In this document: positions 12,063 to 31,351 of the stretch, piece by piece
How positions within the stretch are numbered: position 1 is the first letter of the stretch
Layout of the letters: the number at the start of each line of letters is the position of its first letter
NCBI GenBank assembly: GCA_039918595.1
Contig: JBDSHF010000028.1
Coordinates: 5,370-69,369 of the forward strand
DNA length: 64,000 nt
Direction: 5' to 3'
Source: Thermoanaerobaculia bacterium
GTDB lineage: Bacteria; Acidobacteriota; Thermoanaerobaculia; Multivoradales; UBA5704
Translations under genes and position numbers: made by a program
The notes under the pieces: model-generated
Database searches by the model: none
Seen by the model: the letters and a program-made list of their open reading frames with translations, nothing else
What the model was told of the DNA's origin: nothing

Positions 12063-12065
12063 TCG

Positions 12066-14556: not shown

Positions 14557-14665
14557 CCGTCGAGCGTACAGGCGCGGTTCGGAGTGGAGAAGTCGCGCTT
14601 CTGTGCCGGAGTCGGCAGCATGGTGCGTATTTGAGGCGGGATATAAGGGCAGTACGCTCTCCCAC

Positions 14666-16652: not shown

Positions 16653-16684
16653 AACGTCCCCAACGTCCTGATATGCCCTTGGAA

Positions 16685-16706
16685 AACCTGCCGACCCCGG
16701 CAGGTT
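16685..16706 (+). terminator. hairpin terminator after 15273..16652
   Basis: AACCTGCCG, loop ACCC, CGGCAGGTT, followed by a T-rich tract. Confidence 0.45.
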
Positions 16707-16720
16707 ATTGCGTCTTGTAT

Positions 16721-16735
16721 TTGACATACTGTCAA
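16721..16735. promoter_or_regulatory. perfect palindrome TTGACATACTGTCAA (candidate operator overlapping a -35-like TTGACA)
   Basis: Sits 14 nt upstream of HTH gene 16749..17108. Confidence 0.4.
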
Positions 16736-16748
16736 GTATATTGCTGCG

Positions 16749-17108
16749 GTGGCTATGACATTCATACCATTACAGAACTATCTCCGTACCTACCGCAGGC
16801 GCAGTTTTCTCTCGCAGGACGAGGTTGCTTTCCTTTTGGGCGCAAAGACCGGGACACGGGTCACCCGCCATGAGGGAGCTAACCGGATTCCGAAGATGGA
16901 GACGGCGCTTGGCTACGAAGTGCTGTTCGGCGTTCCCTTGCGCGAACTGTTCGCAAGCGAGGCGCACAAGGTCGAAACCATTATCAGACAGCGTGTGCCC
17001 GAGCTGATCCGGGAGGTCGAGGAGAAGGGCGAAAGCAGAGAGAAGCTTTCCTTTCTCCGAAGCCTTTCCGAACGGCTCGCAAAGCATCATGAGAACACTT
17101 GCAATTGA
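16749..17108 (+). CDS. HTH regulator (XRE-like)
   Basis: RRSFLSQDEVAFLLGAKTGTRVTRHEGANRIPKMETALGYEVLFG. Start is GTG 16749 or ATG 16755. Confidence 0.6.
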   Translation: MAMTFIPLQNYLRTYRRRSFLSQDEVAFLLGAKTGTRVTRHEGANRIPKMETALGYEVLFGVPLRELFASEAHKVETIIRQRVPELIREVEEKGESREKLSFLRSLSERLAKHHENTCN

Positions 17109-17571
17109 CCCTACTACGTCCGGCTTCGGCTTCGTGGTCCTCGAAGGAAGCGAGCGCCTGGTTGATTGGGGCCTCGGGCGACTGGAAAAGCCCGAGGATA
17201 CCCTCTTCCTGAAGCGGATCGAAAAGCTTCTTGACCGCGCAGCACCGCAGCTCCTTGTCCTTGAGGACATGGAGGACTCGCGCCGCGGCAAGAGGGCTAT
17301 CGCCTGGACGCGGCTTGCACAGATGTGCGCTGCGAAGCGCGGCATCAGGGTGGAGAGAATCGGCCGCGCGGAAGTGTCAGAGCGCTTTGCTTCCTCGGGA
17401 AAGTCGAGATGGGAGGTCGGCCTTGCGATCTCGCGCTTCTTCCCGGAGCTCGCCCCGAGCCTTCCGAAGAAACGGCGTATCTGGGAGAGCGAGGACCGGC
17501 GCATGACGATCTTCACGGCCGCCTCCTTTGCCTTGACCTTCCTGCGTCGAGCGGATCGAAGTAGAGAGTAG
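17089..17571 (+). CDS. RuvC-like (RNase H-fold) nuclease
   Basis: LAIDPTTSGFGFVVLE, QLLVLEDME and SEDRRMTIFTAASFALTFL parallel the RuvC blocks GIDPG..GYGVI, faiE and D.aDAlaiA. 20-nt overlap with the upstream HTH gene. Confidence 0.6.
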   Translation: MRTLAIDPTTSGFGFVVLEGSERLVDWGLGRLEKPEDTLFLKRIEKLLDRAAPQLLVLEDMEDSRRGKRAIAWTRLAQMCAAKRGIRVERIGRAEVSERFASSGKSRWEVGLAISRFFPELAPSLPKKRRIWESEDRRMTIFTAASFALTFLRRADRSRE

Positions 17572-17675
17572 CTAGCCTAGCGGTAGGCAAATCAACATCA
17601 TGTCTTTACGGAGAGGACACGGCACAAAGCTCCTCGGGTAACCTACCGGGGAGCTTTGGCGTACCCGACAGATAC

Positions 17676-18890
17676 GTGCGTCTTTGGAAGACGGGAGGAG
17701 ACGGGCACGATACGCCGATGCAATCCGACAACGACATCACCTATTTTGCCCGCATTAATCACCGCAACAAGGGGACGCCTTTCGGCATCCGGAGAGCCGA
17801 CCGCCGCACCCACATGTACGTCATCGGGAAGACCGGCACCGGGAAGTCAACGCTCTTGAAAACCCTCGCACTCCACGACATAGAACACGGCGAAGGGCTT
17901 GCATTGTTCGATCCGCACGGGGATCTTGCGGAGGAGATCGTATCGCTCGTGCCTGCGAACAGACGCGCGGATCTCATCTACCTCAACGTGCCGGATCGTT
18001 CCTTCGTCTGGCACTTCAACCCCTTTGCCGGCATTCCGGAAGAGAAGCACGCTCTTGCGGTGGCGGGCATGGTCGAGGTGTTCAAGAAGCTTTGGCCGGA
18101 CGAATGGGGGCCGCGTCTGGAGCATCTCCTCCGAAACGTGGTCTTCACGCTCCTCGCGGCCGGGGGCAACTTGGGCGACGTGCCCCGCCTGCTGTCTGAC
18201 AAGGATTATAGGAACGCAGCGGTGCGCCGGGTTACGAATGGGATGGTCCGGGAGTTCTGGGAGAAGGAGTATGCCGGGTACTCGCCCGCCTTCCGGGCGG
18301 TGGTGACGGCGCCACTCCAGAACAAGCTCGGAGCGTTCCTCACGGACCCCTTGCTCCACTTGATCCTTACCGGCGAGCGCAGCTCCTTCGACCTCAGGCA
18401 GCTCATGGACGGGGGGAAGATCCTCATCGTCAACCTCGCCAAGGGAAGGATCGGGGAGGGGCCGGCAACGCTCCTGGGGTCGCTCCTGGTATCGCACCTC
18501 TCCCTGGCAGCGCTTGAGCGTGCGGACCGGCCCCAGGAGGAGCGGAGGGACTTCTACCTCTACCTGGACGAATTCCACACCTTCGCCACGCTGACGCTCG
18601 CCACCATGCTCTCTGAACTCCGGAAGTACCGGCTAAACCTCATCCTGGCCCACCAGTATCTCTCCCAGTTGGAGACGGAGATCCGGGATGCGGTCTTCGG
18701 GAACGTGGGGACATTCATCGCCTTCCGGGTGGGGGCCTTGGACGCGTCGACCGTTGCCCGGGAGCTGGCGCCGAAGTTCGAGGCGGAGGATCTCCTGTCC
18801 CTGCCGAACTTCTCTGTTTACCTGCGGCTCATGATCCGGGGGGAGCCGTCCAAGCCGTTTAGTGCTGTCAGTTGTGCACCACTGTCTTGA
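17676..18890 (+). CDS. FtsK/HerA/T4CP-superfamily ATPase A (core only)
   Basis: Walker A GKTGTGKS followed by LFDPHGD. YLYLDEFHTFAT...RKYRLNLILAHQYLSQL. Start uncertain (GTG 17676 or ATG 17718). The C-terminus abuts the low-GC cassette. Confidence 0.7.
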   Translation: MRLWKTGGDGHDTPMQSDNDITYFARINHRNKGTPFGIRRADRRTHMYVIGKTGTGKSTLLKTLALHDIEHGEGLALFDPHGDLAEEIVSLVPANRRADLIYLNVPDRSFVWHFNPFAGIPEEKHALAVAGMVEVFKKLWPDEWGPRLEHLLRNVVFTLLAAGGNLGDVPRLLSDKDYRNAAVRRVTNGMVREFWEKEYAGYSPAFRAVVTAPLQNKLGAFLTDPLLHLILTGERSSFDLRQLMDGGKILIVNLAKGRIGEGPATLLGSLLVSHLSLAALERADRPQEERRDFYLYLDEFHTFATLTLATMLSELRKYRLNLILAHQYLSQLETEIRDAVFGNVGTFIAFRVGALDASTVARELAPKFEAEDLLSLPNFSVYLRLMIRGEPSKPFSAVSCAPLS

Positions 18891-18922
18891 CGCATCTGAT
18901 AAAGGCATGCGATAGTGATGCC

Positions 18923-19879
18923 ATGGCTAAACAAATCGCGGCCCGCTCTCAGGTGACGAGTCCTCACAAGCGTGATTGGCCCTTGGCTATTATTGTATTG
19001 TTCTTTGTCTTTATTTCAGGTTTCACTTTGTCAGCTCAGCCCGCAAGGAAGACTCTGTACACGAGCCAAGATGCCAAAATCGACGAACTGAAGTGTTCAT
19101 CCAAAGACAAGATTTTTCTACCTATTCTTCCGAAAAAGTCAATTTACGGAAAGGTGATCGAACCTGAAGATGTCCTACGCTCGGCGCCTCCTTCGAATCT
19201 TGCAAGTGATGCGGATGAATCTAGGAATTTAGTAGGATATTCGGGACCCTATTACAACGTGGAGGAGCTGACTGGAAATGTCGCCGTGCTCGAAAGGACT
19301 TTATATAACTGGCCGACTAATAATTGGCATGTAACAGGGTTGCTTCGAAATCAAACATGCATGGACATTCGAGTCTCGTCCATAACCGCCCACCTTATCG
19401 GGCCAAGCGGTAAGGAAGTGCGCATTGAAACTGCTACCGTTCCTATTAGTGATTTGAGACCGGGTGAGCCGGCCCCTTTTGATCTAAGTTCTCCAATCCC
19501 AAGAGAGAACGTTGAGCGCGTGGAATGGCAGATTGGATACGCAACAACGACAGAATCGCCCGTTCGGACTTTCTCATTTCTGGTATATCAGTCACGCCAG
19601 ATCACAAGTTCCTCGTACCTGCTTTTCGGCAGTATCCAGAACCTAGGGAGTTCCAGTGCGAGGGGAACTCACATTGTGGCGGCCTGGCTAGATAGTAGCG
19701 GCAGGGTTCGCTATGTAGCATCACCTCTGATTCAACTGGCGACCGGTCCATTGAGTCGAAGAAATAAAATAAATTTGGTGGGCAACGATTTTGAAGATTT
19801 CGTCTTTTCCGCTAATGATCCGCTGCTAGCATCAACGTTGAGTCAGGCAAACGTCGCAATCTGGGGTGTTGCAAATTGA
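18923..19879 (+). CDS. membrane-anchored/secreted protein with two beta-sandwich-like repeats
   Basis: N-terminal anchor WPLAIIVLFFVFISGFTL. Low GC. Stop overlaps the TTG start of the next gene. Confidence 0.55.
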   Translation: MAKQIAARSQVTSPHKRDWPLAIIVLFFVFISGFTLSAQPARKTLYTSQDAKIDELKCSSKDKIFLPILPKKSIYGKVIEPEDVLRSAPPSNLASDADESRNLVGYSGPYYNVEELTGNVAVLERTLYNWPTNNWHVTGLLRNQTCMDIRVSSITAHLIGPSGKEVRIETATVPISDLRPGEPAPFDLSSPIPRENVERVEWQIGYATTTESPVRTFSFLVYQSRQITSSSYLLFGSIQNLGSSSARGTHIVAAWLDSSGRVRYVASPLIQLATGPLSRRNKINLVGNDFEDFVFSANDPLLASTLSQANVAIWGVAN

Positions 19880-22800
19880 AATATTCAGCCTGGGCCTTAT
19901 CAGTGATCGTCCTAATTCTCTCGGGAGAAGGACAAGCGGCAGCGCATGACTTTGGCAGTATACCCTATGACGATGTGGTCTACGCGGCCCAAGTCTATAA
20001 TCAATGCAGGGATACTCTCCCGACTGACAAATTGGTTGCTTACATGCTCGCGCCGACATGGCGAGAATTAACCAATGGCAATACCAATCTAACGCCATCC
20101 CCTATGACATTGGGCAGAGGGGATAACGATTTGGATCTATATCCAGATGGTCAGTCCGGCGCAACTGCTCCGCACCGTCGCGCTTTTTGGCACCCGGGTA
20201 TTGGTCTCTGGCAACTCGATGATATCGGTCTTGGAAAAGACATTAGCACAGAGAAATTCAACTCAAGAGACGCGGCTCAGGTTGCAGCTACCATAATCTC
20301 AACTCGATATTGTAAATCGCCAACAGCTGCGTATATATATGGAGGTATCTGGATTGCTTGTGGGGCGGATGGGAGTCTTTGTCAGGATATTGTCAACCAA
20401 CTCTACAACCCTAATGGCCCTCCAGCGTATACAGTTGGTCGCGACAATAGTGTTGGTCGGTACGGTGGTTCGCAGTTGCATACGTGTAAACTAGCGGGCG
20501 ACACTAGGTATTTCGATTGCCTATATGTTAAGCCTGCCAACCCAGATGGAACACGAGCCAACGCCGAGGGTACTATATCAAGTTGGATTTACCAGCCATT
20601 AGAGGGTCTTTATCCCCCCAATACACCGTCTCCGCTAACAATGCCATTTTATGTCTATCGAGAGGATGCAACTGGAGGGGGATTCGAGTGGCGATATTGG
20701 CTAGCTGCTGATACAGGCTTCGGAAAAGATTATGCTGCTAGACGAACCTATGGCGCCAACTCTCGGGCAGGTCTCCATTGGGTTTCAGATGCGTCAACCA
20801 GCTTAGCTCTCTGTGATGTTACCCTTACACGCGGTGCCTGTGGAGGTATTCCCCAGGCACCTTCGATATCCAACATAGCACAGCTATCGTACGACGGGTC
20901 GCCACTTTCAGTCGGCGCTATTACACAAGCTGGAACCGTTATACTCCGAGGTACACTTGCTGGTTCTCAGGGTCAACAAGTACGAATTGAGCTAGAGGTT
21001 CGGAGAATCTCTGACCCGTTCTTAGGTGAACCGAATTACCTTGGAAACTACGTCACCAGTGGGAGCGTAAGCAAGTGTGTCACGGGACTGCAAGACGCCA
21101 AATATCATTGGCAGGCACGAGTGAGGAGCGATAGTGGACAGTTCAGTCAATGGCTTCAGTTCGGGGGAAACTCTGAAGCCAGTCCTGATTTCGAGGTACA
21201 GGCTAATAGATGTGCTATTTGCACTGCGTCTGGCGCATCTGCTGTGGTCACAAAGTATGGCCGTATTGGAATATCCTGTGGCGTACCCCTGGCTGTAGAA
21301 CTTGCAGCGTCTGTCAACAATGGTATTACCCTGCTTAATGGTGTAAGTCTGACGGCATCGGTGAGTGGTTCGGAAACCGGCACTATAAATTACACGTTTT
21401 ATTGTAATCGTCCCGATGGAGGAATTGATGTTAGATCTGGATGGATTGCCAAGTACGATGGGATTTCGGCGAATCCGAAAACAGCATATGACGTATGTGA
21501 CTATGTTGGGCCGGGTATTTATACTGCAAAGGTGATCGCTGAGCGTGGATCAAGCGCAGCTGAATCACGGACACTCATCACCGTTTCGGCACCTTCAACG
21601 CAAACTCCTTCGGTTACAACGAGTGGCTCGGCAAATGTGACCCAAAGTAGTGCGACTCTCAGTTTATCTGTTAATCCAAACGGGTCTGATACTTCAGCCT
21701 GGTTTGATTGGGGGACGAGCACCTCCTTCTGCTGTAACACGAGTCAGCAGACAGTCGCGGCTAGTTCGGGAGCGTCACTGCTTAGTATGACCGTAGGCGC
21801 CCTTCAATGCGACACAACCTACTACTTCCGAGCCCACGCACAAAGTGTAGGCGGAGAAGCCACAGGAAGCACCTTGTCATTCCGAACGGGTGCATGTGGC
21901 AACGGCCCCCAAACCGTTCAACTTGTGCCTGATCCAGGCTTCGAGCAAGGAAACAATGCGTGGTGGGTAGCGAGCCCAGCGTTCTATATCGATCATGCTC
22001 CCACCTTCCCGAATCCGCGCAATGGAAGTTACTACGCTTTCCTTTCCACGTCCAACGGCTCGGCGGGCAACAATTTGCAGGGCGGCGTGATATCGCCCCA
22101 AGTCACCATTCCTTCAAACGCAAGCGGAGCTGAACTGCGCTTCTGGTATAGCGTTTCGACACAGGAGACGAGTACATCAATCTTTGATACCCTCAAGGCT
22201 TACCTAGTTAAGCCGGGGAATCAAGCGACACTCTTTGCAACCATCTCAAACTTGGACAATTCTGGCACAACGTATAGAGAGAAGGTTGTCGGCATTCCCT
22301 CCTCATTTTTCGGCGGCCCGGTGCAGATCTTTTTCTCTGGCGCAACAGACGGTAGCTTGCCTACCGTCTTCCGCGTAGACGATGTGACGCTTTCTGCCTT
22401 CATCCCTGCGACGGCCGGTTCGCCTGTCGTTAGCACGGGGTCTGTTGACCAAATTACCTCGTCTAGCGGACGGCTCAGCATGACTGTCAACCCCAACGGT
22501 GCCGACACTCAGGTGTGGTTTGATATAGAAACGAACAATCCGCCGAACTCTGAGACAGAGCACGTAGCTATAGGAACCGGGCAGCAGGCCGAGGGCGTTA
22601 GCATTAGTGTATTCGGCTTGCGATGCGACACGACCTACTACTATCGGGCTGATGCCGTCAATTCGTACGGATCACAGCTAGGCTCTGTGAGTTCTTTTAG
22701 AACCAGTACTTGTCCCGTTCAAGCCCCCTCAGTATCAACCACTGTTGCTGACAGTATAACGTCCACCTCTGCGCGTTTGGTTGGGAGCGTCAATCCAAAC

Positions 22801-24789
22801 GGCTTCTCAACAACGGTTTGGTTCGCTTGGGGAACCGATACGACGCTCGGAAATTCTACGCCTAGCCAGAACGTCGGCAGTGGTAATTCTTCAGTGAGCT
22901 TCGCGGCTACACTCAATAACCTTCAGTGCGGCACTACCTACTACTACCGTGCCAAGGGGCAGAACAGCGGCGGGCAGACATCCGGTGCGCTCTACAACGT
23001 AACAACTTCCCCTTGCAGCCAAATACCCGTTATAACGATAACGGCAAGCGATCCGACTGCGACTGAAAATCCCATGACTACGGGGGAGTTTCTCATCCAG
23101 CGAACAGGAGATCTTTCTAGTGCGTTATCGGTGGCATACACCGTGGGAGGAACCGCCATCGTTGGGGTAGATCACACGCTTGGAGGCGGGAGCGTGACCA
23201 TCCCCTCTGGATCAGCCTCGACTACTTTGACCGTCTTTCCGATCGACGATTCACTGGTCGAACCAGATGAGACCGTCGTTGTGACGCTTCAGCCGCAGTC
23301 CCAATATACAGTTGGTACCCCAAGCGGTGCCACTGTTACAATTACGAGTGATGATACGGGATGTGCCTTAAGTGTCATAAGGCCGCAAGGTGGAGAGGTG
23401 TGGACAAAAGGATCACCTCATACCGTTCAGTGGAGTGCGAACTCTGATTGCGTGGACTTTGCCTTTATTCTATACAGAAATGGTAACTTTGATGGCTACC
23501 TGACAGGTTCTCTGTCCGGGAGCCAATTTAGCTGGACACCTCCGGCGTGGCTCGTACCAAGTCCCGGGCTGCAGATTGATGTTGTAGGATTCAACGCTGA
23601 TGGCACTGGTGTTTCGGCGCGTTCAAACAACTTTACGCTTATCAACCCTGCGGTCCTTCCCGCAGTCATATTCCAGGACACTGTAGAGACTAACGATGAG
23701 TTCAACTACTACTCCGAAGGATGGGGAGTGACAAATTTCACCTCGCACAGCCCCACGCATTCGCGCGCGGATAGTCCTGCTTTCTACGGCAACAACACGA
23801 ACAGCTCACTTATAACACCTAAAATCGATGTTAGTAGCCGCACCTCCCTCTCTCTCAGCTTCTGGCATCGCTTTAGTCTTGCGGACTTCGACTTCGTGAA
23901 CGTCTGGGTTAAGACCGATCAAGGAGATTGGATCTTCTTGCAGGGCTTTACCGGAATCCAATCTGACTGGCGACAGGTCACAATTAACCTGAACGCTTTC
24001 CTTGGCCAACCGTCTGTTCAGGTCGCTTTTCAGATAGTATCTGATGATGCTCTGACTGCCGATGGCTGGTATATCGACGACATCGTATTGAGTGGGGCGA
24101 GTGACACTAATAAAATTTTCTCTAATGGTTTTGAGTCCGGTGATCTTTCGGCATGGTTGGTGGCGCCGCCGAGCGACGGAAGCATCGTTTCTGTTTTGGA
24201 GCAGGGTGTCCCAGGGCAACCCGGAAAGGATATTTGGACAACGAGCAACTATTCATTTGCGCCGGGCGGCAACACGCCGGGAGGTGGGTTGGACAACGAA
24301 GAGCTTGTAGTAGGAGGATGGGGCGACAATTACTACAGCCTCCTTGAGTTCAATCTCGCAGGGCTTCCAAGTCACGCATCCTCGGCAGTGCTCAAGCTCT
24401 TTTGCTACCGGACTCGTGCTACCGAAACGATTGGCATGTATGTCGAGCGTATAACCCAGATATGGGATTGGCGTACCCAAGGCACCGGCCGAGATAGGGA
24501 GAGGTTATGGTGGGCAGACCAACCGCAGTCACTCAATTGGATAGGCTTGCCGGTCACGAAGCCGACGGTAGGGCAGTGGTACTCAATCGACATCACGGAT
24601 CTCTATAACGCATGGCAGAACGGATCTGTGCCAAACTACGGCATCAAGCTCACACCGGTTGATAATGGTAACGAGTGGAGCGAGTTTTACAGCGCAAACT
24701 ACTCTGATCCGGCCTTCCGGCCTCGGCTCGTAATTCGGCCGGATCAATCTACCGTTAAACGTTCTCCTCTATCTAGGAAGCCACGGTAG
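19876..24789 (+). CDS. giant secreted multidomain protein (three FN3-like repeats, Calx-beta-like and DNRLRE-like C-terminal domains)
   Basis: Signal peptide MKYSAWALSVIVLILSGEGQAAA. Three repeats with NPNG..T..WF.WGT...LQC.TTYYYRA (~21600-23015). Calx-beta-like ITITASDPTATE...VEPDETVVVTL. C-terminal GGLDNEELVVGGWGDNYYSLLEFNL. Confidence 0.8.
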   Translation: MKYSAWALSVIVLILSGEGQAAAHDFGSIPYDDVVYAAQVYNQCRDTLPTDKLVAYMLAPTWRELTNGNTNLTPSPMTLGRGDNDLDLYPDGQSGATAPHRRAFWHPGIGLWQLDDIGLGKDISTEKFNSRDAAQVAATIISTRYCKSPTAAYIYGGIWIACGADGSLCQDIVNQLYNPNGPPAYTVGRDNSVGRYGGSQLHTCKLAGDTRYFDCLYVKPANPDGTRANAEGTISSWIYQPLEGLYPPNTPSPLTMPFYVYREDATGGGFEWRYWLAADTGFGKDYAARRTYGANSRAGLHWVSDASTSLALCDVTLTRGACGGIPQAPSISNIAQLSYDGSPLSVGAITQAGTVILRGTLAGSQGQQVRIELEVRRISDPFLGEPNYLGNYVTSGSVSKCVTGLQDAKYHWQARVRSDSGQFSQWLQFGGNSEASPDFEVQANRCAICTASGASAVVTKYGRIGISCGVPLAVELAASVNNGITLLNGVSLTASVSGSETGTINYTFYCNRPDGGIDVRSGWIAKYDGISANPKTAYDVCDYVGPGIYTAKVIAERGSSAAESRTLITVSAPSTQTPSVTTSGSANVTQSSATLSLSVNPNGSDTSAWFDWGTSTSFCCNTSQQTVAASSGASLLSMTVGALQCDTTYYFRAHAQSVGGEATGSTLSFRTGACGNGPQTVQLVPDPGFEQGNNAWWVASPAFYIDHAPTFPNPRNGSYYAFLSTSNGSAGNNLQGGVISPQVTIPSNASGAELRFWYSVSTQETSTSIFDTLKAYLVKPGNQATLFATISNLDNSGTTYREKVVGIPSSFFGGPVQIFFSGATDGSLPTVFRVDDVTLSAFIPATAGSPVVSTGSVDQITSSSGRLSMTVNPNGADTQVWFDIETNNPPNSETEHVAIGTGQQAEGVSISVFGLRCDTTYYYRADAVNSYGSQLGSVSSFRTSTCPVQAPSVSTTVADSITSTSARLVGSVNPNGFSTTVWFAWGTDTTLGNSTPSQNVGSGNSSVSFAATLNNLQCGTTYYYRAKGQNSGGQTSGALYNVTTSPCSQIPVITITASDPTATENPMTTGEFLIQRTGDLSSALSVAYTVGGTAIVGVDHTLGGGSVTIPSGSASTTLTVFPIDDSLVEPDETVVVTLQPQSQYTVGTPSGATVTITSDDTGCALSVIRPQGGEVWTKGSPHTVQWSANSDCVDFAFILYRNGNFDGYLTGSLSGSQFSWTPPAWLVPSPGLQIDVVGFNADGTGVSARSNNFTLINPAVLPAVIFQDTVETNDEFNYYSEGWGVTNFTSHSPTHSRADSPAFYGNNTNSSLITPKIDVSSRTSLSLSFWHRFSLADFDFVNVWVKTDQGDWIFLQGFTGIQSDWRQVTINLNAFLGQPSVQVAFQIVSDDALTADGWYIDDIVLSGASDTNKIFSNGFESGDLSAWLVAPPSDGSIVSVLEQGVPGQPGKDIWTTSNYSFAPGGNTPGGGLDNEELVVGGWGDNYYSLLEFNLAGLPSHASSAVLKLFCYRTRATETIGMYVERITQIWDWRTQGTGRDRERLWWADQPQSLNWIGLPVTKPTVGQWYSIDITDLYNAWQNGSVPNYGIKLTPVDNGNEWSEFYSANYSDPAFRPRLVIRPDQSTVKRSPLSRKPR

Positions 24790-24939
24790 GATGTGCTACC
24801 TGGATTGACTGATAAGGAACGGCAAGAGTATGTTCTAAAGTCAAATCTCGATGTCGCAGAATGTAAATTCCTCTATTTGAACTCTCTCCCGGGTCTTGCT
24901 AGTCTCATTCGTACCAACCGAAGTACGGAGGATCCCCGC

Positions 24940-25635
24940 ATGCCCCGACACTCTGACGGAGTAGTGCTGTCCAACTGGCATACCCTCTTCGAGGACTTCT
25001 CGACCTCGACCCAGGACTTCTATGCCGCTGTTGAAGCCGCGATTGCAGACCGGAACCTCCCAGACATCAAACTCTCCCGCGTCTTCTTCAGTGAGGGCGG
25101 CATCGGTTCCGCCAAGCGCGAATACCTCCGCATCGAGCGCCAGCGGATCGTCTTCGACATCTGCTCCGCGCCATACGGCAAGGGGCACTTCTTCTCCTGG
25201 TGGCTTGCCAAGATCCCAGCGAAGTATGGTCTTTTCATCGTTCTCGGTATTGCCCTCGGATGTCTTCCACTCTGTCTCATCTTCCTTGGCATCCTCTTGA
25301 AAATCTTCGAGGGCTCCCTCTTCGGCATGGTCGTCCTTCCCTTCATCTCCCTCCTCGTCATCCCGGCGATCTTCCTTCTCCTCGGTCTCGGCGTCGAGCG
25401 AGGGCTCATCGGCGACGAGGAATGGGTCCTCTCCATCCCCTGGGTCGGATACCTGTACTACGTAGTCTTCAACCCTGTCTCATACTACCGCCTCGACACC
25501 GCCATGATGTTCCGCGACTCGATACGCTCGGCCGTGAACGAGGTCTTGAACGACCTGCGGGAAGAGAAGGGCCTGCGGCTCCTCGGGGACGAGGAACTCC
25601 GGCCCGACGCCGACGAGGGAGAGGCCACGGCGTAG
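24940..25635 (+). CDS. membrane protein (about three TM helices) upstream of ATPase B
   Basis: ATG at 24940 with GGAGGA RBS. GLFIVLGIALGCLPLCLIFLGILL and MVVLPFISLLVIPAIFLLLGLG. GC rises at this start relative to the cassette. Confidence 0.6.
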   Translation: MPRHSDGVVLSNWHTLFEDFSTSTQDFYAAVEAAIADRNLPDIKLSRVFFSEGGIGSAKREYLRIERQRIVFDICSAPYGKGHFFSWWLAKIPAKYGLFIVLGIALGCLPLCLIFLGILLKIFEGSLFGMVVLPFISLLVIPAIFLLLGLGVERGLIGDEEWVLSIPWVGYLYYVVFNPVSYYRLDTAMMFRDSIRSAVNEVLNDLREEKGLRLLGDEELRPDADEGEATA

Positions 25636-25641
25636 CGGGGT

Positions 25642-28600
25642 ATGGCGAGCCGGGTTGAGGAGCGCACCCACCATTTCTTCCGGTGGGAACGGCGGGGCCG
25701 CGGACGGCGGAGCTTCCTGTCTCCCGTCTCGCTTGAGCCGCCCTTCACTCCCTTTTGGTTCGTGAAACATGCCGCGCCCGCCCTCGATGACGGCAGGCAT
25801 CACACCTTCTTGTCAGCCTTCCTCGAACGGTTCTCTGGTAAGCGGGAGGCGCCGCCACCTGAGCCCGAGATCGAAGAGCCGGAGGCGGAACCCGGAGACG
25901 AGGGGGAGCCTGTCGAGCTACGGGTCCTCCTGCCGCAGGAGCTTTCCGTCACGGCGGCGCTCTCCGAAGGCTTCCTCAAGAGCCTTGCGGCCGTCCATAC
26001 GCCGCTCTCGCTGGAACTGGTCGGCATAGGCGGAGAGGTGGCGGTTTCCCTCACCAGCCGCAGGACGGCGGTGCCGATCCTCTCCTCCCAACTGCGGGCC
26101 TTCTTCCCGGAGGTACGCCTGGAGGAGGAAGAAGATCTCCTCCTCACTGCCTGGGAGTCGGGAGTGGAGGGTGTCTTCGGCGCCGTCGAGCTTGGCCTGT
26201 CCCGCGAGTTCATGCTACCCCTCGGCCGTCCGCGAAACTTCACGCCCGATCCCTTGACCGCGATCGTGGGAGCGCTTGCGGAGACTGCGCCCGGCGAGGT
26301 TGTCATCGTCCAGGTGCTCTTTCAGGGAGTGCGGTCGCCGTGGGCGGAGAACATCGTGCGGTCGGTGACCACACCCTCCGGCGAGCCCTTCTTCGCTGAC
26401 GCTCCCGAGGTCACCAAGCTTGCCCGCGAGAAAGTATCCGCACCGCTCTTCGCCGTTGCCGTTCGCGTCGTGGCGCGGGGAGCAACCGAGGAGCGGCTGT
26501 GGACGCTTCTCTCGGGTAGCCTTGGCGCGCTCGTGGGCGCAACGAGAGGTGACAACGAACTTGTGCCGCTCGGGACGGATGACAGTACCGAGATCTTGGG
26601 AGACGTGCTCCTGCGCAGGACCCACCGGAGCGGCTTTCTCCTCTCGCTTCCCGAGCTGCTTCCCCTGGTTCACCTTCCGTCGCCCTCGATCCCCGGCATC
26701 GCCCGGGACACCGGCCGCACCAAGCTCCTCCCCGAGGAGGCACAGGAAGGCGGGCTCTTCCTCGGGTACAACGTCCATGCGGGAAGGGAGCGCGAGGCGC
26801 GGCTCTCGACGGACGCGCGCCTCCGCCACGTGCATGTCGTGGGGGCTTCGGGCACCGGCAAGTCAACGCTTCTGGTGTCCATGATCCTCCAGGACATTGC
26901 CGCCGGGCACGGCGTGGGCGTCATCGACCCGCACGGCGATCTCATCGACCACGTGCTCGGCGGGATTCCTGAAAACCGAGCGGCGGACGTAATCCTCTTT
27001 GACCCGGCCGACCCGGAGCATGTCGTCGGCTGGAACATACTCTCCGCGCACTCCGAAGCAGAGAAAGACATGCTCTCCTCGGACCTCGTTGCGGTCTTCC
27101 GCAGGCTTTCGACCTCCTGGGGCGACCAGATGACGGCGGTCCTTGCGGGCGCGATTCTCGCCTTCCTGGAGTCAGAGCGGGGCGGCACGCTCCTCGATCT
27201 GCGGCGGTTCCTCGTGGACCAGGGCTTCCGGCGGGAGTTTCTCGCCACCGTCCGCGACGAGTATGCCCGAGACTTCTGGACGAGAGAGTTTCCGGTGCTC
27301 AAGGGCTCGCCTCAGGCGTCGATCGTGACCCGGCTCGATACGCTTCTCCGGGGCAAGCTCGTGCGCGGGGTGGTGACGGCCAGAGACAAGCCCCTGGACT
27401 TCCGGGGAGTGGTGGACGACCGGCGGATCTTCCTGGCGAAGCTCTCGCAGGGTGCCATCGGCGAGGAGAACGCTGCGCTCCTGGGGTCGCTTCTCGTCTC
27501 GAAGATCCACCAAGTATGCCTTCTGCGGCAGGATCAGGCCGAGGGTTCGCGCCGGCCGTTCTTCCTCTACCTCGACGAGTTCCACAACCTCGCGACGCCC
27601 TCCATGGCGACGCTCTTCTCCGGGGCGCGCAAGTACCGCCTCGGGGTGACCGTCGCGCATCAGGATCTCTACCAGCTCCACGCCTCCGTTCCCGAAGTCG
27701 AACGGGCCGTCCTCGGGAACGCATACACCCGGATCTGCTTCCGCCTCGGCGACGAGGACGCCCGGACCTTATCTGCGGGCTTCTCCTTCTTCACGGCAGA
27801 CGACCTCGGGAACCTCGACACCGGAAGAGCGATCTGCCGGGTGGGCAGGAAGGAGCACGACTTCAACCTCTCCGTCGTGCCGATGGAGCATGGAGACCCT
27901 GAGGCGCATGAAGCGAGGCGCCGGGATGTCCGGGCGCGGTCGCTTGCGAGGTGGGGCGCGCCGCGCTCTGCGGAGCCGCCGGCGGCTCCCGCACCTCCCG
28001 AGAGGCCACGAGCGGAAGCACCGCCACGAGTCGAAGTGCCACTGGCGCAGCCGCAACCCAAACGAGAGACAGCCCCGCCGCCTTCGGCTCCGCCCCCTCT
28101 ACCCGCACAGGTGCAAGCTCCCGAGCCACCTCCGGTCGAACCGCGCCGCCCGGGCAAAGGCGGGCCGGAGCACACGTATCTCCAGGAACTCATCAAGCGG
28201 TGGGGAGAGGAGAAGGGCTTCCGGGCAGTGGTCGAGGAGCAGATTGCGGGCGGCAGGGAAAGCATAGACATCGCCCTCTACCGGGGCGACCTCAAGATCG
28301 CCTGCGAGGTCTCGGTCACGACGCCTCTTGAATATGAGGTCGGGAACGTGGAGAAGTGCCTTGCGGCCGGATTCGGGACGGTGGCGGTCGTGTCTCTCAA
28401 GAAGGCCCGACTCGCGAAGCTCGGAAAGCTCCTCGACGAAGCCATTCCTTCCGAGAGCCGGGCCAAGGTCCACCTATTCACGACGGAGGAGTTGCTCTCA
28501 TGGCTTGAGGGGCAGCCGGTCCACGAGGAGGTGAAAACTGTCAGGGGATGGAAGGTCAAGGTCAAGTACCGCGATCCGGGAGATGACCGCATGAAGCGCG

Positions 28601-28650
28601 TCGCCGAGATCCTGGCCCGGAGTACGAGCGGGCTAGAGAAGGATGGGTAG
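25642..28650 (+). CDS. FtsK/HerA/T4CP-superfamily ATPase B with long N-domain, Pro-rich linker and C-terminal PD-(D/E)xK-like nuclease domain
   Basis: Walker A GASGTGKS plus VIDPHGD. FFLYLDEFHN...RKYRLGVTVAHQDLYQL, paralogous to ATPase A. Linker PPAAPAPPERP...PPPLPAQ. C-terminal GRESIDIALYRGDLKIACEVSV. Confidence 0.7.
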   Translation: MASRVEERTHHFFRWERRGRGRRSFLSPVSLEPPFTPFWFVKHAAPALDDGRHHTFLSAFLERFSGKREAPPPEPEIEEPEAEPGDEGEPVELRVLLPQELSVTAALSEGFLKSLAAVHTPLSLELVGIGGEVAVSLTSRRTAVPILSSQLRAFFPEVRLEEEEDLLLTAWESGVEGVFGAVELGLSREFMLPLGRPRNFTPDPLTAIVGALAETAPGEVVIVQVLFQGVRSPWAENIVRSVTTPSGEPFFADAPEVTKLAREKVSAPLFAVAVRVVARGATEERLWTLLSGSLGALVGATRGDNELVPLGTDDSTEILGDVLLRRTHRSGFLLSLPELLPLVHLPSPSIPGIARDTGRTKLLPEEAQEGGLFLGYNVHAGREREARLSTDARLRHVHVVGASGTGKSTLLVSMILQDIAAGHGVGVIDPHGDLIDHVLGGIPENRAADVILFDPADPEHVVGWNILSAHSEAEKDMLSSDLVAVFRRLSTSWGDQMTAVLAGAILAFLESERGGTLLDLRRFLVDQGFRREFLATVRDEYARDFWTREFPVLKGSPQASIVTRLDTLLRGKLVRGVVTARDKPLDFRGVVDDRRIFLAKLSQGAIGEENAALLGSLLVSKIHQVCLLRQDQAEGSRRPFFLYLDEFHNLATPSMATLFSGARKYRLGVTVAHQDLYQLHASVPEVERAVLGNAYTRICFRLGDEDARTLSAGFSFFTADDLGNLDTGRAICRVGRKEHDFNLSVVPMEHGDPEAHEARRRDVRARSLARWGAPRSAEPPAAPAPPERPRAEAPPRVEVPLAQPQPKRETAPPPSAPPPLPAQVQAPEPPPVEPRRPGKGGPEHTYLQELIKRWGEEKGFRAVVEEQIAGGRESIDIALYRGDLKIACEVSVTTPLEYEVGNVEKCLAAGFGTVAVVSLKKARLAKLGKLLDEAIPSESRAKVHLFTTEELLSWLEGQPVHEEVKTVRGWKVKVKYRDPGDDRMKRVAEILARSTSGLEKDG

Positions 28651-28676: not shown

Positions 28677-28705
28677 GCCACAGGGGCACCTTGTGGCGTC
28701 TTTCC
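28677..28705 (+). terminator. hairpin after ATPase B
   Basis: GCCACA (28677-82) pairs with TGTGGC (28692-97), followed by GTCTTTCC. Confidence 0.35.
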
Positions 28706-28791
28706 GGCTACCATCGGCGCGCGTACGGTGGGCGAAGAGTGTTCTTCACACCTTCAACCCTCCGCGAGAGCGGATCTCTTTGGAGACAAGG

Positions 28792-30375
28792 ATGATGCGT
28801 CCCCGAACCCCTAACAGCGAAGGCAAACGGGTGGGGCTCTGGATCAGAGTCTCGACCGAAGACCAAGCACGGGGCGAGAGTCCCGAGCACCACGAAGCGC
28901 GCGCCCGGATGTATGCCGAGAGCAAGGACTGGACCGTCATAACGGTCTACCACCTCGAAGGCGTGTCAGGGAAGTCGGTCATGCAGCACCCCGAGGCACA
29001 GCGGATGCTTGCCGATGTCAGGCAAGGGTCGATCTCCGGCCTCATCTTCTCCAAGCTCGGCCGCCTAGCCCGGAACACGACCGAGCTACTGGAGTTTGCC
29101 GCGATCTTCGAGCAGCACGGTGCCGACCTCATTTCCCTCGGCGAGTCGATCGACACCTCCACTCCCGCCGGCCGTCTCTTCTACACCTTGATCGCCGCCA
29201 TGGCGACCTGGGAGCGAGAGGAGATCGCCTCTCGGGTCGCGGCTTCCGTGCCTATCCGGGCCAAGCTCGGGAAGAAGCTCGGCGGAGCCGCCCCCTACGG
29301 CTACGCCTGGAAGGACGGCAAGCTCGCCCCTGAAGAGAAAGAGGCGCCTGTCCGGAAGCTCATGTATGAACTCTTCCGACAGACCAAGCGCGTGCGGACG
29401 GTTGCCCGGCTCTTGAACGAGCAAGGATACCGGACCCGAAACGGAAGCCTCTTCACCCATGTCACGGTGCGGCGCCTCATCCTCGACCCCACCGCTAAGG
29501 GGGTACGCCGCGCCAACTACACCAAGAGCCTGGGTGACGGGAAGAAGTGGAAGCTCAAGCCCGAAAGCGAATGGGTAGAGCTGCCAGTCCCCCCGATCGT
29601 GGACGAAGCGGTCTGGGAATCGTGCGCCTCGATCCTCCGGGAGAGGGCGAACGGCCGCAAGCCCGGTCCCCGGACAGTCCACCTCTTCACTGGCGTTGTC
29701 TTCTGCCATTGTGGGCGGAAGATGTACGTGCCCTCGAACAACCCTAAGTGGATCTGCCAGGGGTGCCACAACAAGATCCCCATTCCGGACCTTGAGGCCG
29801 TCTTCGAAGAACGGCTTCAGGCGCTCGTCTTCTCCCCTGAGCAGTTTGACGTCCACCTTCGGGAAACAGAGGCGACGATCGAGGCAAAGCGGGAGGAGCT
29901 GGCAGTGCTACTGCGGGAAGAAGACTCCGTAAAGGCTGAGTCCGACAAGCTCTACCGCCTCTACCTCGAAGGGGGCCTCCCGGTCCCGGCCTTTCGGGAA
30001 AGGAACGATCCTCTGGAGGAGCGGAAAGAGCAACTGCGGCTCCAGATTCCCCGGCTCAAGGGAGAGATAGACTTCCTCGTGATACGGCAGCTCGGAAGTA
30101 CAGAGACTCTTGTCGAGGCCCAGACCCTCTACGAGAAGTGGGCGATCCTCTCCTTCGGGATCAAGCGGGAGATCGTCGAAACCATCGTGGAGCGGATCGA
30201 CGTCGGGGTGGGCGATGTCGAGATCACCCTCTCTTGCGACATACCCGAGCCCCCCGACTTCCCCCTTTCCCCTGAACTCATGGCAGAAGGGGAACGAATC
30301 TCCAGGGATTCATCGCGGCGAGCAGGGAAAACCGGGCCGGGAAGACCAGCCGGGCGCGGGCCCGCACGACGCTGA
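28792..30375 (+). CDS. large serine recombinase R2 (island integrase candidate); ORF runs across the island/comM junction
   Basis: [23 protein letters not shown], recombinase domain, Cys cluster [10 protein letters not shown]...WICQGCHNK, coiled coil. ATG at 28792 with GGAGA RBS. The last ~25 codons lie in comM-antisense DNA. Confidence 0.85.
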
Positions 30376-31351
30376 CGTTCCCCTCTTCGAGCGGCTGGCG
30401 CAGGGCTTCCAGGGTGTCGCGCCGGAATTCCGGGAGCTCGTCGAGGAAGAGGACGCCGTTGTGGGCCAGGCTCGCCTCGCCCGGCCGCGGGTTGCTGCCG
30501 CCGCCGATCATCCCCGCCGTGCTGGTCCCGGTGTGCGGGCTGCGGAACGGCCGCTGGCGCAGCAGCCCCGCCGGCGGCTCCTCGGCCACCAGGGAGTGGA
30601 CCTTGGTGACCGCGATCGACTCCGCCAGGGTGAGCGGCGGCAGGATCCCCGGCAGGCGGCGGGCGAGCATGGTCTTCCCTGAGCCTGGAGGCCCGAGGAA
30701 GAGGAGGTTGTGGCCGCCGGCCGCGGCCACCTCCAGAGCCCGTTTCGCCATCTCCTGCCCCCGCACCTCGGAGAGGTCGGGCGCCCCCATCAGCAACTCA
30801 ATGGAAAAGGGGGGAGCCGGGACGGCCGGCAGCTCCGCCTCACCCGTAAGGTGCTGGACGGCCTCGGCAAGCCCCCGGAGACCGAAGACCGGGACGGCTT
30901 CGAGGGCAGCCGCCTCGGCGGCGTTGGCCGCCGGCAGCAGGACCTCGCGGACTCCCATGCGGCGCCCGAGGTCGGCGATGGCCAGACCGCCGCGCACGGA
31001 GCGGATGGCGCCGTCGAGCCCCAGCTCGCCGCAGATCAGCCGCCCGGCGAGGGCGTCCTGCGGGATCTGCTCGTAGGCCGCGAGCATCGCCAGGGCAATG
31101 GCGAGGTCGAGGTGGTTGCCCTCCTTGCGGAGGTCGGCCGGCGCGAGATTGATGATGATGGACTTGGGTTCCAGGTCGAAGCCGCAGTTTTTGATCGCGG
31201 CGCGCACCCGCTCGCGGCTCTCGCGGACCGCGGCATCGGCAAGTCCCACGATCTGAATCTGCGGGAGTCCGTTCTGGACGTCGACCTCTACCTGGACGGG
31301 GCGTGCTTCGATCCCCCATGGCGTGGCGGTGGTGGCTCTGGCTAGCATCAA
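30278..31351 (-). pseudogene. comM: comM/yifB (Mg-chelatase-like ATPase), 5' two-thirds, interrupted by the island
   Basis: [32 protein letters not shown], Walker [20 protein letters not shown]. Ends at AAMNP, whereas full-length relatives are about 500 aa. Confidence 0.75.
30295..30310. other. approximate island/chromosome junction (attR)
   Basis: comM translation ..FSLLAAMNP is followed by WRFVPLLP-stop instead of the expected CPCG-type continuation. Confidence 0.5.

Follow-up and report, generated by a model that had tools for sequence, protein, structure and literature searches.

A membrane protein and a coupling-protein-type ATPase fused to a PD-(D/E)xK-like domain form a backbone component of integrative elements inserted in comM

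We analysed a 64,000-nt stretch of DNA from a Thermoanaerobaculia bacterium (the window). A gene pair encoding a membrane protein and a large ATPase (ATPase B) lies there at the right end of an island; the left end of the island was sought but not found. The features are as follows.

12710..14326, minus strand: second large serine recombinase, reading outward, left of the conserved unit
14540..15280, plus strand: Toprim/primase-like gene (phrog_47 primase, E 1e-6)
15216..16652, plus strand: P-loop protein, 478 aa (GSGKSRF and VVDEGDF motifs; homologues at loci L021, L023 and L082)
16749..17108, plus strand: XRE-type HTH
17089..17571, plus strand: RuvC/RNase H-like gene (weak RuvC match)
17676..18890, plus strand: ATPase A, 404 aa, core-only paralogue of the ATPase B motor
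18872..24789, plus strand: cargo slot, flanked by ATPase A and the membrane gene
24940..25635, plus strand: membrane partner, 231 aa, adjoining ATPase B on its 5′ side
25642..28650, plus strand: ATPase B, whole fusion protein, 1002 aa
25642..25806, plus strand: N-terminal peptide of ATPase B (aa 1-55), candidate docking motif (alignment of orthologues; pLDDT 32-51)
25909..26691, plus strand: VirB4-N-terminal-domain-like fold (aa ~90-350; Pfam DUF8128, precomputed annotation)
26797..27846, plus strand: coupling-protein (TrwB/VirD4/TraD)-type P-loop motor (aa ~386-735)
27958..28152, plus strand: Pro/Ala-rich flexible linker (aa 773-837; 65 aa, 57% Pro+Ala)
28153..28650, plus strand: PD-(D/E)xK-fold nuclease-like domain (aa 838-~960) and tail
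28693..30375, plus strand: large serine recombinase, directly 3′ of ATPase B
30305..31351, minus strand: 5′ portion of comM (ChlI/Mg-chelatase family), truncated after ...AAMNP; the island's right end

The ATG of the membrane gene at 24940 lies inside a longer ORF (24793..25635, plus strand) and follows a GGAGGA. The DNA of a close relative becomes similar from 24936 onwards, indicating that the 231-aa start is right. The top hydrophobic 19-mers of the protein were at residues ~88-145, with a weaker one at ~162, and about three TM segments are predicted. A conserved cytoplasmic N-domain (~95 aa) is followed by a variable hydrophobic region and a conserved C-terminal segment; no match was found in Pfam, NCBIfam, PADLOC or PHROG. 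The gap to the ATPase B ORF is 6 nt. The original prediction of a 231-aa protein with about three TM helices, then 6 nt, then a 1002-aa ORF was thus correct in all its coordinates. ATPase B has more than 3800 homologous proteins in at least eight phyla, with 35-50% identity across phyla, and two or more copies per genome occur; cultured carriers include Lacibacter luteus TTM-7 and Mucilaginibacter phenanthrenivorans BJC16-A38. In 74 of 82 loci of this large family the membrane gene lies 5′ of ATPase B in the same orientation, far beyond chance.

The ATPase B ORF contained every motif quoted in the original prediction: GASGTGKS at residue 401, VIDPHGD at 427, YLDEFHN at 643, RKYRLGVTVAHQDLYQL at 663 and, in the C-domain, GRESIDIALYRGDLKIACEVSV at 871 and EYEVGNVEK at 897. 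The motor elements (Walker A GASGTGKS, DPHGD, Walker B DE, RKY and HQ) were invariant in 78 orthologues from multi-phylum loci with 35-50% identity. Three Pfam models scored over cut-off (PF10412, 35 bits; PF02534, 36.8; PF12696, 26.9). The motor aligned with TrwB of R388 over aa 386-681 (hhalign probability 96.6%, E 5e-10), and PDB profiles matched TrwB (1e-8) and DotL (8.5e-5). Type IV coupling proteins (TrwB, VirD4, TraD, DotL) have a P-loop motor with an all-alpha insertion homologous to that of ATPase B. A 946-aa Thermoanaerobaculia MAG protein in the same 90%-identity cluster is named 'type IV secretion system DNA-binding domain-containing protein' by NCBI, and TrwB and the ATPase B family bear the same NCBI name. 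By sequence, the motor is of the coupling-protein type, not VirB4. However, ATPase B scored far under all NCBIfam coupling-protein cut-offs (50 vs 250 bits and worse). It lacks the N-terminal TM domain of coupling proteins, having instead a 350-aa soluble VirB4-like N-region and a separate membrane protein; it adds a C-terminal nuclease domain, and no linked relaxase or mating-pair genes were found within 10 kb.

The ~400-aa N-domain had been described as of unknown function, but residues ~90-350 have a fold resembling the N-terminal domain of VirB4, which ties ATPase B to type IV secretion-type machinery and not to restriction-like enzymes. The first 55 residues are predicted to be disordered (pLDDT 32-51) despite the invariant F12, W15, E16, G19, R20, G21, V29, E32, P33 and D50. 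A small membrane gene also precedes the VirB4 gene trwK in R388 (trwM/virB3; 3-nt gap, vs 6 nt here), and the pre-linker size of ~770 aa compares with 823 aa in TrwK. The VirB4 link is by fold only, a point against a role in transfer: no sequence-level signal was obtained (TIGR00929, 18.5 bits against a cut-off of 643; TrwK hhalign probability 10%). VirB3 is smaller than the membrane partner, no homology between the two was detected, and VirB6/8/9/10/11 are absent near ATPase B. We know of no VirB4 protein fused to a nuclease.

Linker length and sequence differ among orthologues; the ~65-aa Pro/Ala linker anticipated here was recovered at residues 773-837. The domain beyond it proved PD-(D/E)xK-like, in agreement with the restriction-endonuclease fold first suggested, and its putative acidic and lysine catalytic residues were near-invariant. 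In this domain H844, E865 and D876 were kept in 78/78 orthologues, E889 and N902 in 76, and E899 and K905 in 77. Among the best 150 of 2804 representative proteins, the domain was invariably C-terminal. The tail is a low-confidence beta-hairpin/helix. These results demonstrated that a VirB4-NTD-like fold, the sequence of a hexameric motor of coupling-protein type and, on a flexible linker, a PD-(D/E)xK fold are joined in ATPase B, and they support a membrane-associated translocase-type ATPase with a PD-(D/E)xK-like domain fused in cis. No paper describes the family or the pair, which, as originally supposed, matches no named system.

ATPase A has neither an N-domain nor a TM segment. Its predicted paralogy with ATPase B was borne out (36% identity over 348 aa, E 4e-64). 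Of 81 loci, 27 had it within 10 kb 5′ of ATPase B; in some the genes adjoin, as in the compact operons of ATPase A, membrane gene and ATPase B at L054, L082 and L099, and in others cargo separates them. The proposal that each ATPase has its own nuclease held for the cis PD-(D/E)xK domain; the RuvC-like partner of ATPase A was weakly supported (RuvC, E 0.12; Cas9 RuvC, E 0.11 with a 4-sequence profile) and did not consistently adjoin ATPase A at other loci. The genes at 14540..17571, a set supported by tblastn matches of clusters 41 and 22, are putative element replication/processing genes. The arrangement of the second recombinase recurs in L092 and L057.

The last ~70 nt of the recombinase gene at 28693..30375 cross the junction into comM-derived DNA. 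comM fragments were found at 16 loci. The truncation point (aa ~349-356) was the same in 11 other loci, and matching C-terminal pieces began at PCPCG in five. The islands interrupt comM at a single codon, and the pair occupies their integrase end. A homologue of this recombinase lay immediately 3′ of ATPase B in 33 of 78 loci (33-36 by counts), a Tyr integrase was present in 14 of 78, and an integrase of any kind lay within 10 kb in 43 of 78. In keeping with a backbone role, ATPase B diverged as closely in step with the recombinase (rho 0.50) as with the membrane partner (0.52; Mantel p 0.001). When the recombinase was used as the starting point, 4 of 6 homologues on long contigs had ATPase B upstream. 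Two had no ATPase B within 7 kb, and two had shortened ATPase B genes, indicating that integrated copies can persist without ATPase B, which counts against a transfer role. Neighbours of ATPase B included Pfam-verified ArdC, RadC, CHC2-Toprim primase and Replic_Relax genes, and also ParB_N and DUF932 genes. Such genes are typical of conjugatively transferred DNA. The pair had been read as a candidate DNA-targeting module; its integrase, comM and ArdC/RadC/primase/Replic_Relax context shows that it does not stand alone in a defence island but belongs to the backbone of a family of integrative mobile elements, which enter comM at a fixed codon.

Two proteins are encoded in the cargo slot here, one of 335 aa with an FxLYD domain and a surface protein of 1637 aa (MAM, Calx-beta, DNRLRE/CBM96). 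A relative whose DNA is 87% identical on either side has non-homologous genes in place of this stretch. Restriction-modification, AAA_21/AbiEii-like, nSTAND and toxin-antitoxin genes are frequent in the slot at other loci, as might be expected if the pair served defence or entry exclusion: a membrane-anchored motor-nuclease could seize incoming phage, plasmid or rival-element DNA, reel it in and cut it, protecting the host and excluding competitors. A translocase is paired with a nuclease in Type I/III/ISP restriction and in HerA-nuclease defence, and the pair follows the same logic, with strictly conserved nuclease residues. In the PADLOC check, mad8 of the MADS defence system matched the ATPase core (E 2e-20). 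This match shows that the motor type also serves a defence system, a further point against transfer. However, the other MADS components were absent and no other PADLOC model matched the neighbourhood. In MADS mad8, HerA-NurA-like and HerA-nuclease systems, too, a ring ATPase goes with a nuclease, but HerA models matched only the Walker A region of ATPase B (E ~1e-3). The pair keeps its place and orientation beside the integrase while true cargo turns over, which is backbone behaviour and not that of a defence island. A paralogous second motor and transfer and establishment genes co-occur, and the VirB4-NTD fold belongs to secretion/conjugation machines, not to defence systems. We consider a defence role unlikely.

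The primase-like, P-loop and RuvC-like proteins suggest replication of an excised form. The motor-nuclease could accordingly act inside the cell, where it might process concatemers or, at the membrane and in the manner of FtsK/SpoIIIE, resolve or segregate the copies made by replication, with no DNA export. The FtsK/SpoIIIE dsDNA pumps are relatives of coupling proteins (PMC12857230), and no export channel was found within 10 kb. We regard such a maintenance role as very improbable: ArdC, RadC, DUF932 and ParB_N, which neighbour it, typically occur on DNA entering new cells, a family that reaches at least eight phyla with 35-50% identity and is found in several copies per genome must move horizontally with efficiency, and the conserved unit shows no other transfer function.

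The pair was not confined to conjugative elements with a full T4SS; such confinement would have spoken against the original prediction. No T4SS channel or relaxase family recurred among 217 upstream ORFs from ~80 loci within 10 kb, and no such genes were seen in the island of the window. The survey covered 10 kb on either side of ATPase B, and more distant genes are possible. Most host phyla are two-membraned, yet no outer-membrane or channel components lay within this range, which also counts against transfer. Integrative mobilizable elements frequently have their own coupling protein and lack channel genes. ATPase B and ATPase A could likewise be private coupling proteins that dock element DNA onto the T4SS of a co-resident conjugative element, making the element mobilizable but not self-transmissible. 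The coupling-protein-type motor and the absence of channel genes near ATPase B favour this reading. However, known mobilizable elements normally retain a relaxase and none recurs at ATPase B loci, while the VirB4-like N-domain and dedicated membrane partner suggest a membrane complex of its own rather than docking by a coupling-protein TM domain. We judge it unlikely, slightly more so than defence.

Transfer by a motor of this kind has precedents. In ICEth1, a small integrative element of Thermus thermophilus, a membrane-bound hexameric FtsK/HerA-superfamily ATPase and nucleases transfer DNA without a T4SS (PMC5365140). This 'transjugation' (TdtA, a NurA-like nuclease and Tth111II) has the same motor-nuclease logic at the membrane. 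However, TdtA is HerA-like, whereas ATPase B is coupling-protein-like with a DUF87/HerA score under cut-off; the ICEth1 nucleases are not fused to the motor and belong to other folds or families; and ICEth1 integrates at a tRNA gene with a different recombinase. ICEth1 appears to be a functional analogue only. TraB of Streptomyces conjugative plasmids and AICEs is a lone FtsK-like membrane motor that transfers dsDNA of small elements without relaxase or T4SS (PMC5365140, PMC12857230). Unlike ATPase B, it carries TM segments itself, recognises clt repeats through a C-terminal wHTH and lacks a nuclease; its hosts are monoderm mycelial actinomycetes, and the likeness is that of a shared superfamily. 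MOBC relaxases (TraX of pAD1, MobC of CloDF13) belong to the PD-(D/E)xK superfamily and process oriT with no covalent intermediate detected (PMC12857230); a nuclease of restriction fold that starts transfer has a precedent in them. They stand alone, whereas the ATPase B domain is fused to a motor. A search of 72,556 plasmids (PLSDB) with this domain returned one 86-aa haloarchaeal ORF and nothing else; the lack of detectable similarity to MOBC relaxases in PLSDB is another point against transfer.

We give about an even chance to the reading that the membrane protein and ATPase B form a membrane-docked DNA-processing/translocating motor of previously undescribed integrative elements, which with ATPase A most likely serves horizontal transfer. 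Among the three functions originally offered, unconventional transfer fitted best, and defence or exclusion stays a rival. In the transfer model, the serine recombinase(s) would excise the element as a circle, to be replicated by the primase and P-loop proteins. ATPase B would oligomerise at the inner membrane, where its VirB4-like N-domain and invariant N-terminal peptide would hold on to the membrane partner in the way that VirB4 does to VirB3; the membrane anchors of VirB4 NTDs are VirB3/VirB8 (PMC12857230). The tethered nuclease would nick or cut element DNA as PD-(D/E)xK MOBC relaxases do, replacing the missing relaxase. The motor(s) would then pump the DNA out through an unrecognised channel or the T4SS of a helper element, or would release it to a competent recipient in the manner of ICEth1/TdtA in Thermus. 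This family occurs in many bacterial phyla of soil and sediment, and the module may move DNA between their cells without the usual conjugation machinery.

The membrane protein and the 1002-aa ATPase of the original prediction were both present as open reading frames separated by 6 nt, and all motifs quoted for them were in place. The membrane protein is encoded within ORF 24793..25635 (+), in which an internal ATG at 24940, preceded by GGAGGA, gives a protein of 231 aa. DNA similarity of this region to a close relative starts at 24936, indicating that ATG 24940 is the real start. Hydrophobic 19-mers at residues ~88-145 and a weaker one at ~162 predict about three membrane segments. ATPase B is encoded at 25642..28650 (+). 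When ORFs were called and clustered, the membrane gene was found directly upstream of the ATPase B gene, on the same strand, in 74 of 82 loci. The upstream position and membrane character of this protein would fit a VirB3-like partner; homology to VirB3 was not detected, and the protein has an extra conserved N-domain of ~95 aa. Searched alone, it gave nothing usable in Pfam (E ≤ 10) or by phmmer against PDB, and the same was true of the N-domain and the C-domain of ATPase B. Sequence libraries recognised only the middle of ATPase B.

This middle part is paralogous to ATPase A (17676..18890), as had been proposed (348 aa aligned at 36% identity, E 4e-64). Among Pfam families, those of coupling proteins (PF10412, PF02534 and PF12696) all scored above cut-off at aa ~387-711 (PF10412, aa 391-711, 35 bits against a cut-off of 20.5; PF02534, 36.8 bits against 20.1). 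A 26-sequence profile matched TrwB (1e-8) and also DotL in PDB, and hhalign against R388 TrwB gave a probability of 96.6% (E 4.8e-10, 258 columns, aa 386-681). In contrast, R388 TrwK aligned at Walker A only, with a probability of 10%. These matches, together with the failure of TrwK, place the motor by sequence within the coupling-protein class. Membership of VirB4 by sequence was rejected (TIGR00929, 18.5 bits against a cut-off of 643; no PF03135 match). The HerA/DUF87 family PF01935 reached 22.5 bits against a cut-off of 23.2, in the Walker A region only, and HerA in PDB matched at E 0.011-0.044. NCBIfam coupling-protein models stayed far below their cut-offs (best, NF045973, 50.4 vs 250 bits; TIGR03743, 45.3 vs 366). 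The Walker A, DPHGD, Walker B, RKY and HQ motifs were kept across 78 full-length orthologues.

ATPase B shares with VirD4/TrwB/TraD a homologous P-loop nucleotide-binding domain with an inserted all-alpha domain. It differs from these proteins in that the membrane segments sit on the separate upstream protein rather than at its own N-terminus, and in having no linked relaxase or MPF genes within ±10 kb. No membrane anchor was found in its N-region; the most hydrophobic 19-mer, with a Kyte-Doolittle mean of 1.62, belongs to the P-loop domain (aa 410).

The PHROG family phrog_5156 (824 profile positions, function unknown) matched ATPase B at aa 261-754, which takes in part of the N-domain, and ATPase A at aa 47-397 (E 8e-43 and 7e-47, respectively). 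Despite this match, the idea of a virus or a packaging ATPase was rejected: just 3 full-length relatives were found among 2.9 million IMG/VR contigs, and GenBank phages gave distant core matches only, in large Bacillus phages (G, 0305phi8-36 ORF201, CP-51).

The ~400-aa N-domain had been described as of unknown function. Residues 1-386 were modelled from an 18-sequence alignment, with pLDDT 80-96 for aa ~90-350. In an independent Foldseek comparison of the model, 14 TrwK chains were the 14 best matches. Because the query ends before Walker A, the match must be to the N-terminal domain of VirB4. As modelled, ATPase B resembles VirB4 at the level of N-domain fold only. This domain anchors VirB4 at the inner membrane and makes contact with VirB3 and VirB8 (PMC12857230). 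The first 55 residues of ATPase B, which precede the VirB4-like domain, have ten invariant positions and are predicted to be disordered; this peptide is likely a docking motif. The N-part of relatives is annotated DUF8128.

Following the motor, the Pro/Ala-rich linker was located at aa 773-837 (65 aa, 57% Pro+Ala). The last 170 residues were modelled confidently (core pLDDT >90) and matched proteins of the restriction-endonuclease fold (AF1548 10.3, Can2 9.7, NucS 9.3, FokI 9.3, BspD6I 9.1, NgoMIV 8.5). The model contains the alpha-beta-beta-beta-alpha-beta core of the PD-(D/E)xK superfamily, bearing out the fold originally suggested for the C-terminal domain. Conservation was counted across 78 full-length orthologues (35-50% identity). 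H844, E865 and D876 were invariant (D876 in 78/78), and E889, E899, N902 and K905 were kept in 76-77 of 78. D876 lies at the start of strand 2 and E889 (76/78) on strand 3. The position of the ExK lysine is occupied by Ser/Thr, and the conserved lysine, K905 (77/78), lies on the following helix; an active site is thus plausible, not proven. By its model, the domain belongs to the PD-(D/E)xK fold class, with atypical lysine placement and a putative active site. A profile of the C-domain retrieved 2804 representative proteins, and in the best 150 of these 2804 it was always at the extreme C-terminus. A link to MOBC relaxases (TraX/MobC) was sought by searching 72,556 plasmids with the C-domain (tblastn, E ≤ 0.1) and rejected: one haloarchaeal 86-aa ORF was the only match, and the domain shows no sequence link to these relaxases.

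Relatives of ATPase B number more than 3800 in a 90%-clustered collection, nearly all of ~1000 aa. Their annotation goes no further than 'type IV secretion system DNA-binding domain-containing protein'. With one genome taken per species, the family is encoded at no fewer than 568 loci. Carriers include Acidobacteriota, Gemmatimonadota, Planctomycetota, Verrucomicrobiota, Bacteroidota, Chloroflexota, Desulfobacterota, Binatia and others, and hosts are mostly diderm. Lacibacter luteus and Mucilaginibacter strains are among the cultured carriers. The family is rare in viral contigs (3 full-length matches). A plasmid-borne family was also considered and rejected: PLSDB gave core-only matches, none full-length, and the Sulfitobacter and Natrinema contexts were uninformative. 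That the architecture is not a named system held up, since neither DUF8128 nor the architecture was found in any paper of the searchable literature. Literature on VirB4 in these phyla and on nuclease-fused FtsK-HerA ATPases contained nothing on the ATPase B family.

The window and L092, a related locus holding an ATPase B homologue, share a conserved unit in the order outward serine recombinase, primase-like gene, P-loop protein, HTH, RuvC-like gene, ATPase A, cargo, membrane gene, ATPase B and serine recombinase.

Features of the conserved unit in the window
12710..14326, minus strand: left-hand large serine recombinase, outward-reading
15216..16652, plus strand: P-loop protein, 478 aa (GSGKSRF, VVDEGDF, NNGN), homologues in loci L021, L023, L082 and L092
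16749..17108, plus strand: HTH gene, homologues in L054 and L082
17089..17571, plus strand: RuvC-like gene, homologues in L054 and L082
18866..24935: cargo slot, FxLYD protein and 1637-aa MAM/Calx-beta/DNRLRE (CBM96) surface protein
28693..30375, plus strand: right-hand large serine recombinase, directly downstream of ATPase B

DNA identity to L092 was 87% over 14295-18865 and 24936-28649, and the stretch between, 18866-24935, was replaced. ATPase A and the membrane gene therefore enclose a cargo slot, and replacement of its content explains the varying distance from ATPase A to the pair. ATPase A was found within 10 kb upstream of ATPase B in 27 of 81 loci, either adjacent, in operons of ATPase A, membrane gene and ATPase B (L054, L082, L099), or 8-10 kb away. 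The slot holds a DAO oxidoreductase in L092, and elsewhere peptidases, ECF sigma/kinase pairs, and PEGA-TPR or beta-propeller membrane proteins. The large surface proteins often encoded in it may be true cargo or mating adhesins. Three diverged 52-nt copies at 21782..22952 lie within the gene of the 1637-aa surface protein and reflect its internal domain repeats.

The 478-aa P-loop protein (63% mean column identity, 4 sequences) travels with the HTH and RuvC-like genes. Relatives were absent from Pfam, PDB and PHROG; the protein may be the replication helicase or initiator of the element. That the pair itself serves the intracellular maintenance of the excised element we consider improbable. 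The RuvC-like gene at 17089..17571 had been predicted as a nuclease acting in trans; the gene stands, with homologues in other loci, and its RuvC assignment is marginal only. A long minus-strand ORF at 16770..17516 (248 aa) is probably spurious, because the plus strand encodes the HTH and RuvC-like proteins, which have homologues. No convincing oriT/clt-like repeat array was found near the pair. A 20-nt motif, AAGACGCACGAACCTGCCGG, occurs three times in the window with ≤3 mismatches, against 0.01 expected, and may be an operator or other protein-binding site.

Copies of the 20-nt motif in the window
12630..12649, plus strand: gap that follows the left recombinase gene at its 3′ end
16697..16716, minus strand: gap separating the P-loop and HTH genes
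17665..17684, minus strand: abuts/overlaps the ATPase A start codon

Pfam-verified recurrent neighbours upstream of the pair were CHC2-Toprim primase, RadC, Replic_Relax, ArdC and a small GDWG protein; ParB_N and DUF932 were also among them. Batch Pfam scans covered 217 non-redundant upstream ORFs within ±10 kb, with the 25 most frequent families listed per scan. These ORFs comprised TPR proteins, DNA methylases, ResIII, AAA_21, radical SAM, T9SS-sorted proteins and similar, with at most 4 members per family. Relaxase or T4SS channel families were not among the 25 most frequent per scan, and relaxase or T4SS channel genes were not found in the island of the window. VirB6/VirB8-type channel subunits were likewise not recurrent within 10 kb, and the conserved unit lacks them in both the window and L092. 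ATPase B, along with ATPase A, might alternatively act as a hitch-hiking coupling protein that serves a helper T4SS, which we regard as rather unlikely.

PADLOC analysis of 9 island proteins matched both ATPases to mad8 of the MADS defence system; no other mad gene or other PADLOC model matched, and the MADS preprint gives no function for mad8. This match of the motor, and the defence genes in the adjacent slot, would fit a defence or exclusion device. However, the pair holds a fixed position in the backbone, is accompanied by a paralogous motor and has a secretion-type N-domain, and no complete MADS or other known defence system surrounds it. We consider a role in defence or exclusion unlikely, though less so than service to a helper T4SS.

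The gene after the right-hand recombinase, at 30305..31351 (-), is the 5′ part of comM, cut after AAMNP within the conserved NPCPCG motif. The comM fragment was cut at the identical residue in 11 other loci from several phyla, and the complementary PCPCG...ARTIADL fragment was found in 5 more. The common cut residue and the complementary fragments show that the pair lies at an end of an integrative element whose target is a single comM codon. A split between AAMNP and CPCG was seen in the window and in L003, L006, L008, L021, L028, L038, L057, L065, L073, L091, L094, L096 and L099; the C-terminal comM piece lay on the other side, in opposite orientation, in L024, L025, L040, L050 and L064.

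Both serine recombinases of the window matched PF00239 and PF07508, and the right-hand one lies at the element end beside the split target gene, as a large serine integrase would. Its ORF extends ~70 nt past the junction, into DNA derived from comM; excision would therefore alter the C-terminus of the recombinase. In the window, L092 and L057, the conserved unit is flanked by two outward-reading large serine recombinases that are only distantly related. Beyond the left-hand one, DNA similarity to L092 goes on for 600 nt or more to the left; this recombinase is therefore not the island boundary. No C-terminal comM fragment marking the left end was found in the window by regex or tblastn, and the window has no tRNA genes. 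Positions 1..12650 look foreign (GC 0.56-0.62 vs 0.67-0.69 on the host side) and hold, besides the two genes below, XRE-type HTH matches at ~841-1127 and ~5315-5479 and TPR proteins. The foreign GC and the element-type genes of this stretch indicate an island of at least 30 kb or a composite one.

Element-type genes in the foreign-looking left stretch
10660..10941, minus strand: GDWG small protein, next to a primase or RadC gene at five further loci
10977..11804, minus strand: ArdC-N-like ORF

A large serine recombinase directly follows ATPase B in 33-36 loci, and a tyrosine integrase occurs in 14. Pairwise identities of ATPase B correlated with those of the downstream recombinase (rho 0.50) and of the membrane partner (0.52; Mantel p 0.001), with host phylogeny as a confounder. 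In a survey anchored on six recombinase homologues (57-72% identity, long contigs), ATPase B was upstream in 4, two of them shortened, and absent within 7 kb in 2; a comM fragment abutted 3 of the 6. By this survey, ATPase B is a usual but losable backbone gene of the comM-element family. Shortened ATPase B-like genes of 597 and 727 aa lie beside intact recombinases in L094 (5083..6876) and L097 (7102..9285), respectively. L094 occupies the same comM/glycosyltransferase/MurB site as the window, which suggests decaying element copies. We rate ATPase B as a hybrid of coupling protein and VirB4 that carries a fused nuclease and belongs to the core of an undescribed, very widespread family of comM-targeting integrative elements.

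The most economical reading is that ATPase A, the membrane protein and ATPase B are the conjugation-type ATPases of the element. ATPase B would be anchored at the inner membrane by its VirB4-like domain and membrane partner, as VirB4 is by VirB3, and the tethered nuclease would supply the DNA end otherwise made by a relaxase. MOBC relaxases, which are PD-(D/E)xK enzymes, offer a precedent for a relaxase of restriction fold (PMC12857230), and TraB one for relaxase-free transfer of dsDNA (PMC5365140, PMC12857230). In Thermus ICEth1, the ATPase TdtA is membrane-bound and hexameric, DNA donation needs a restriction enzyme and a NurA-like nuclease, and the competence system of the recipient is used (PMC5365140).

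A further possibility, which we put forward tentatively and think unlikely, is that ATPase A, the membrane protein and ATPase B form a self-sufficient DNA export machine, free of relaxase and channel. A coupling-protein-type motor would have kept or acquired a VirB4-like docking domain and a tethered nuclease, making a one-protein 'relaxosome plus pump'. The DNA might be handed to the competence system of the recipient, which would then be disabled by the splitting of comM. If so, small comM-targeting islands would spread in this way among Acidobacteriota, Verrucomicrobiota, Planctomycetota, Gemmatimonadota and Bacteroidota, and ATPase B would stand structurally between the lineages of VirB4 and VirD4.

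Conjugation has been catalogued almost wholly by models of VirB4, relaxases and mating-pair formation that derive from Proteobacteria, Firmicutes and Bacteroides. To our knowledge, the dominant phyla of soil and sediment appear nearly devoid of conjugation systems. Here, a conserved motor-nuclease is the core of islands with diverse cargo (surface proteins, restriction-modification, kinases, toxins), and the same comM codon is targeted by islands in different phyla. If the pair instead serves defence or exclusion, it would represent a new membrane-based type of motor-nuclease immunity. If it is a transfer engine, it would join a VirB4-type docking domain and a built-in nuclease to a motor of the coupling-protein class, provide a new marker for mobile elements missed by current tools, and reveal an overlooked route of gene flow in soil and sediment phyla.
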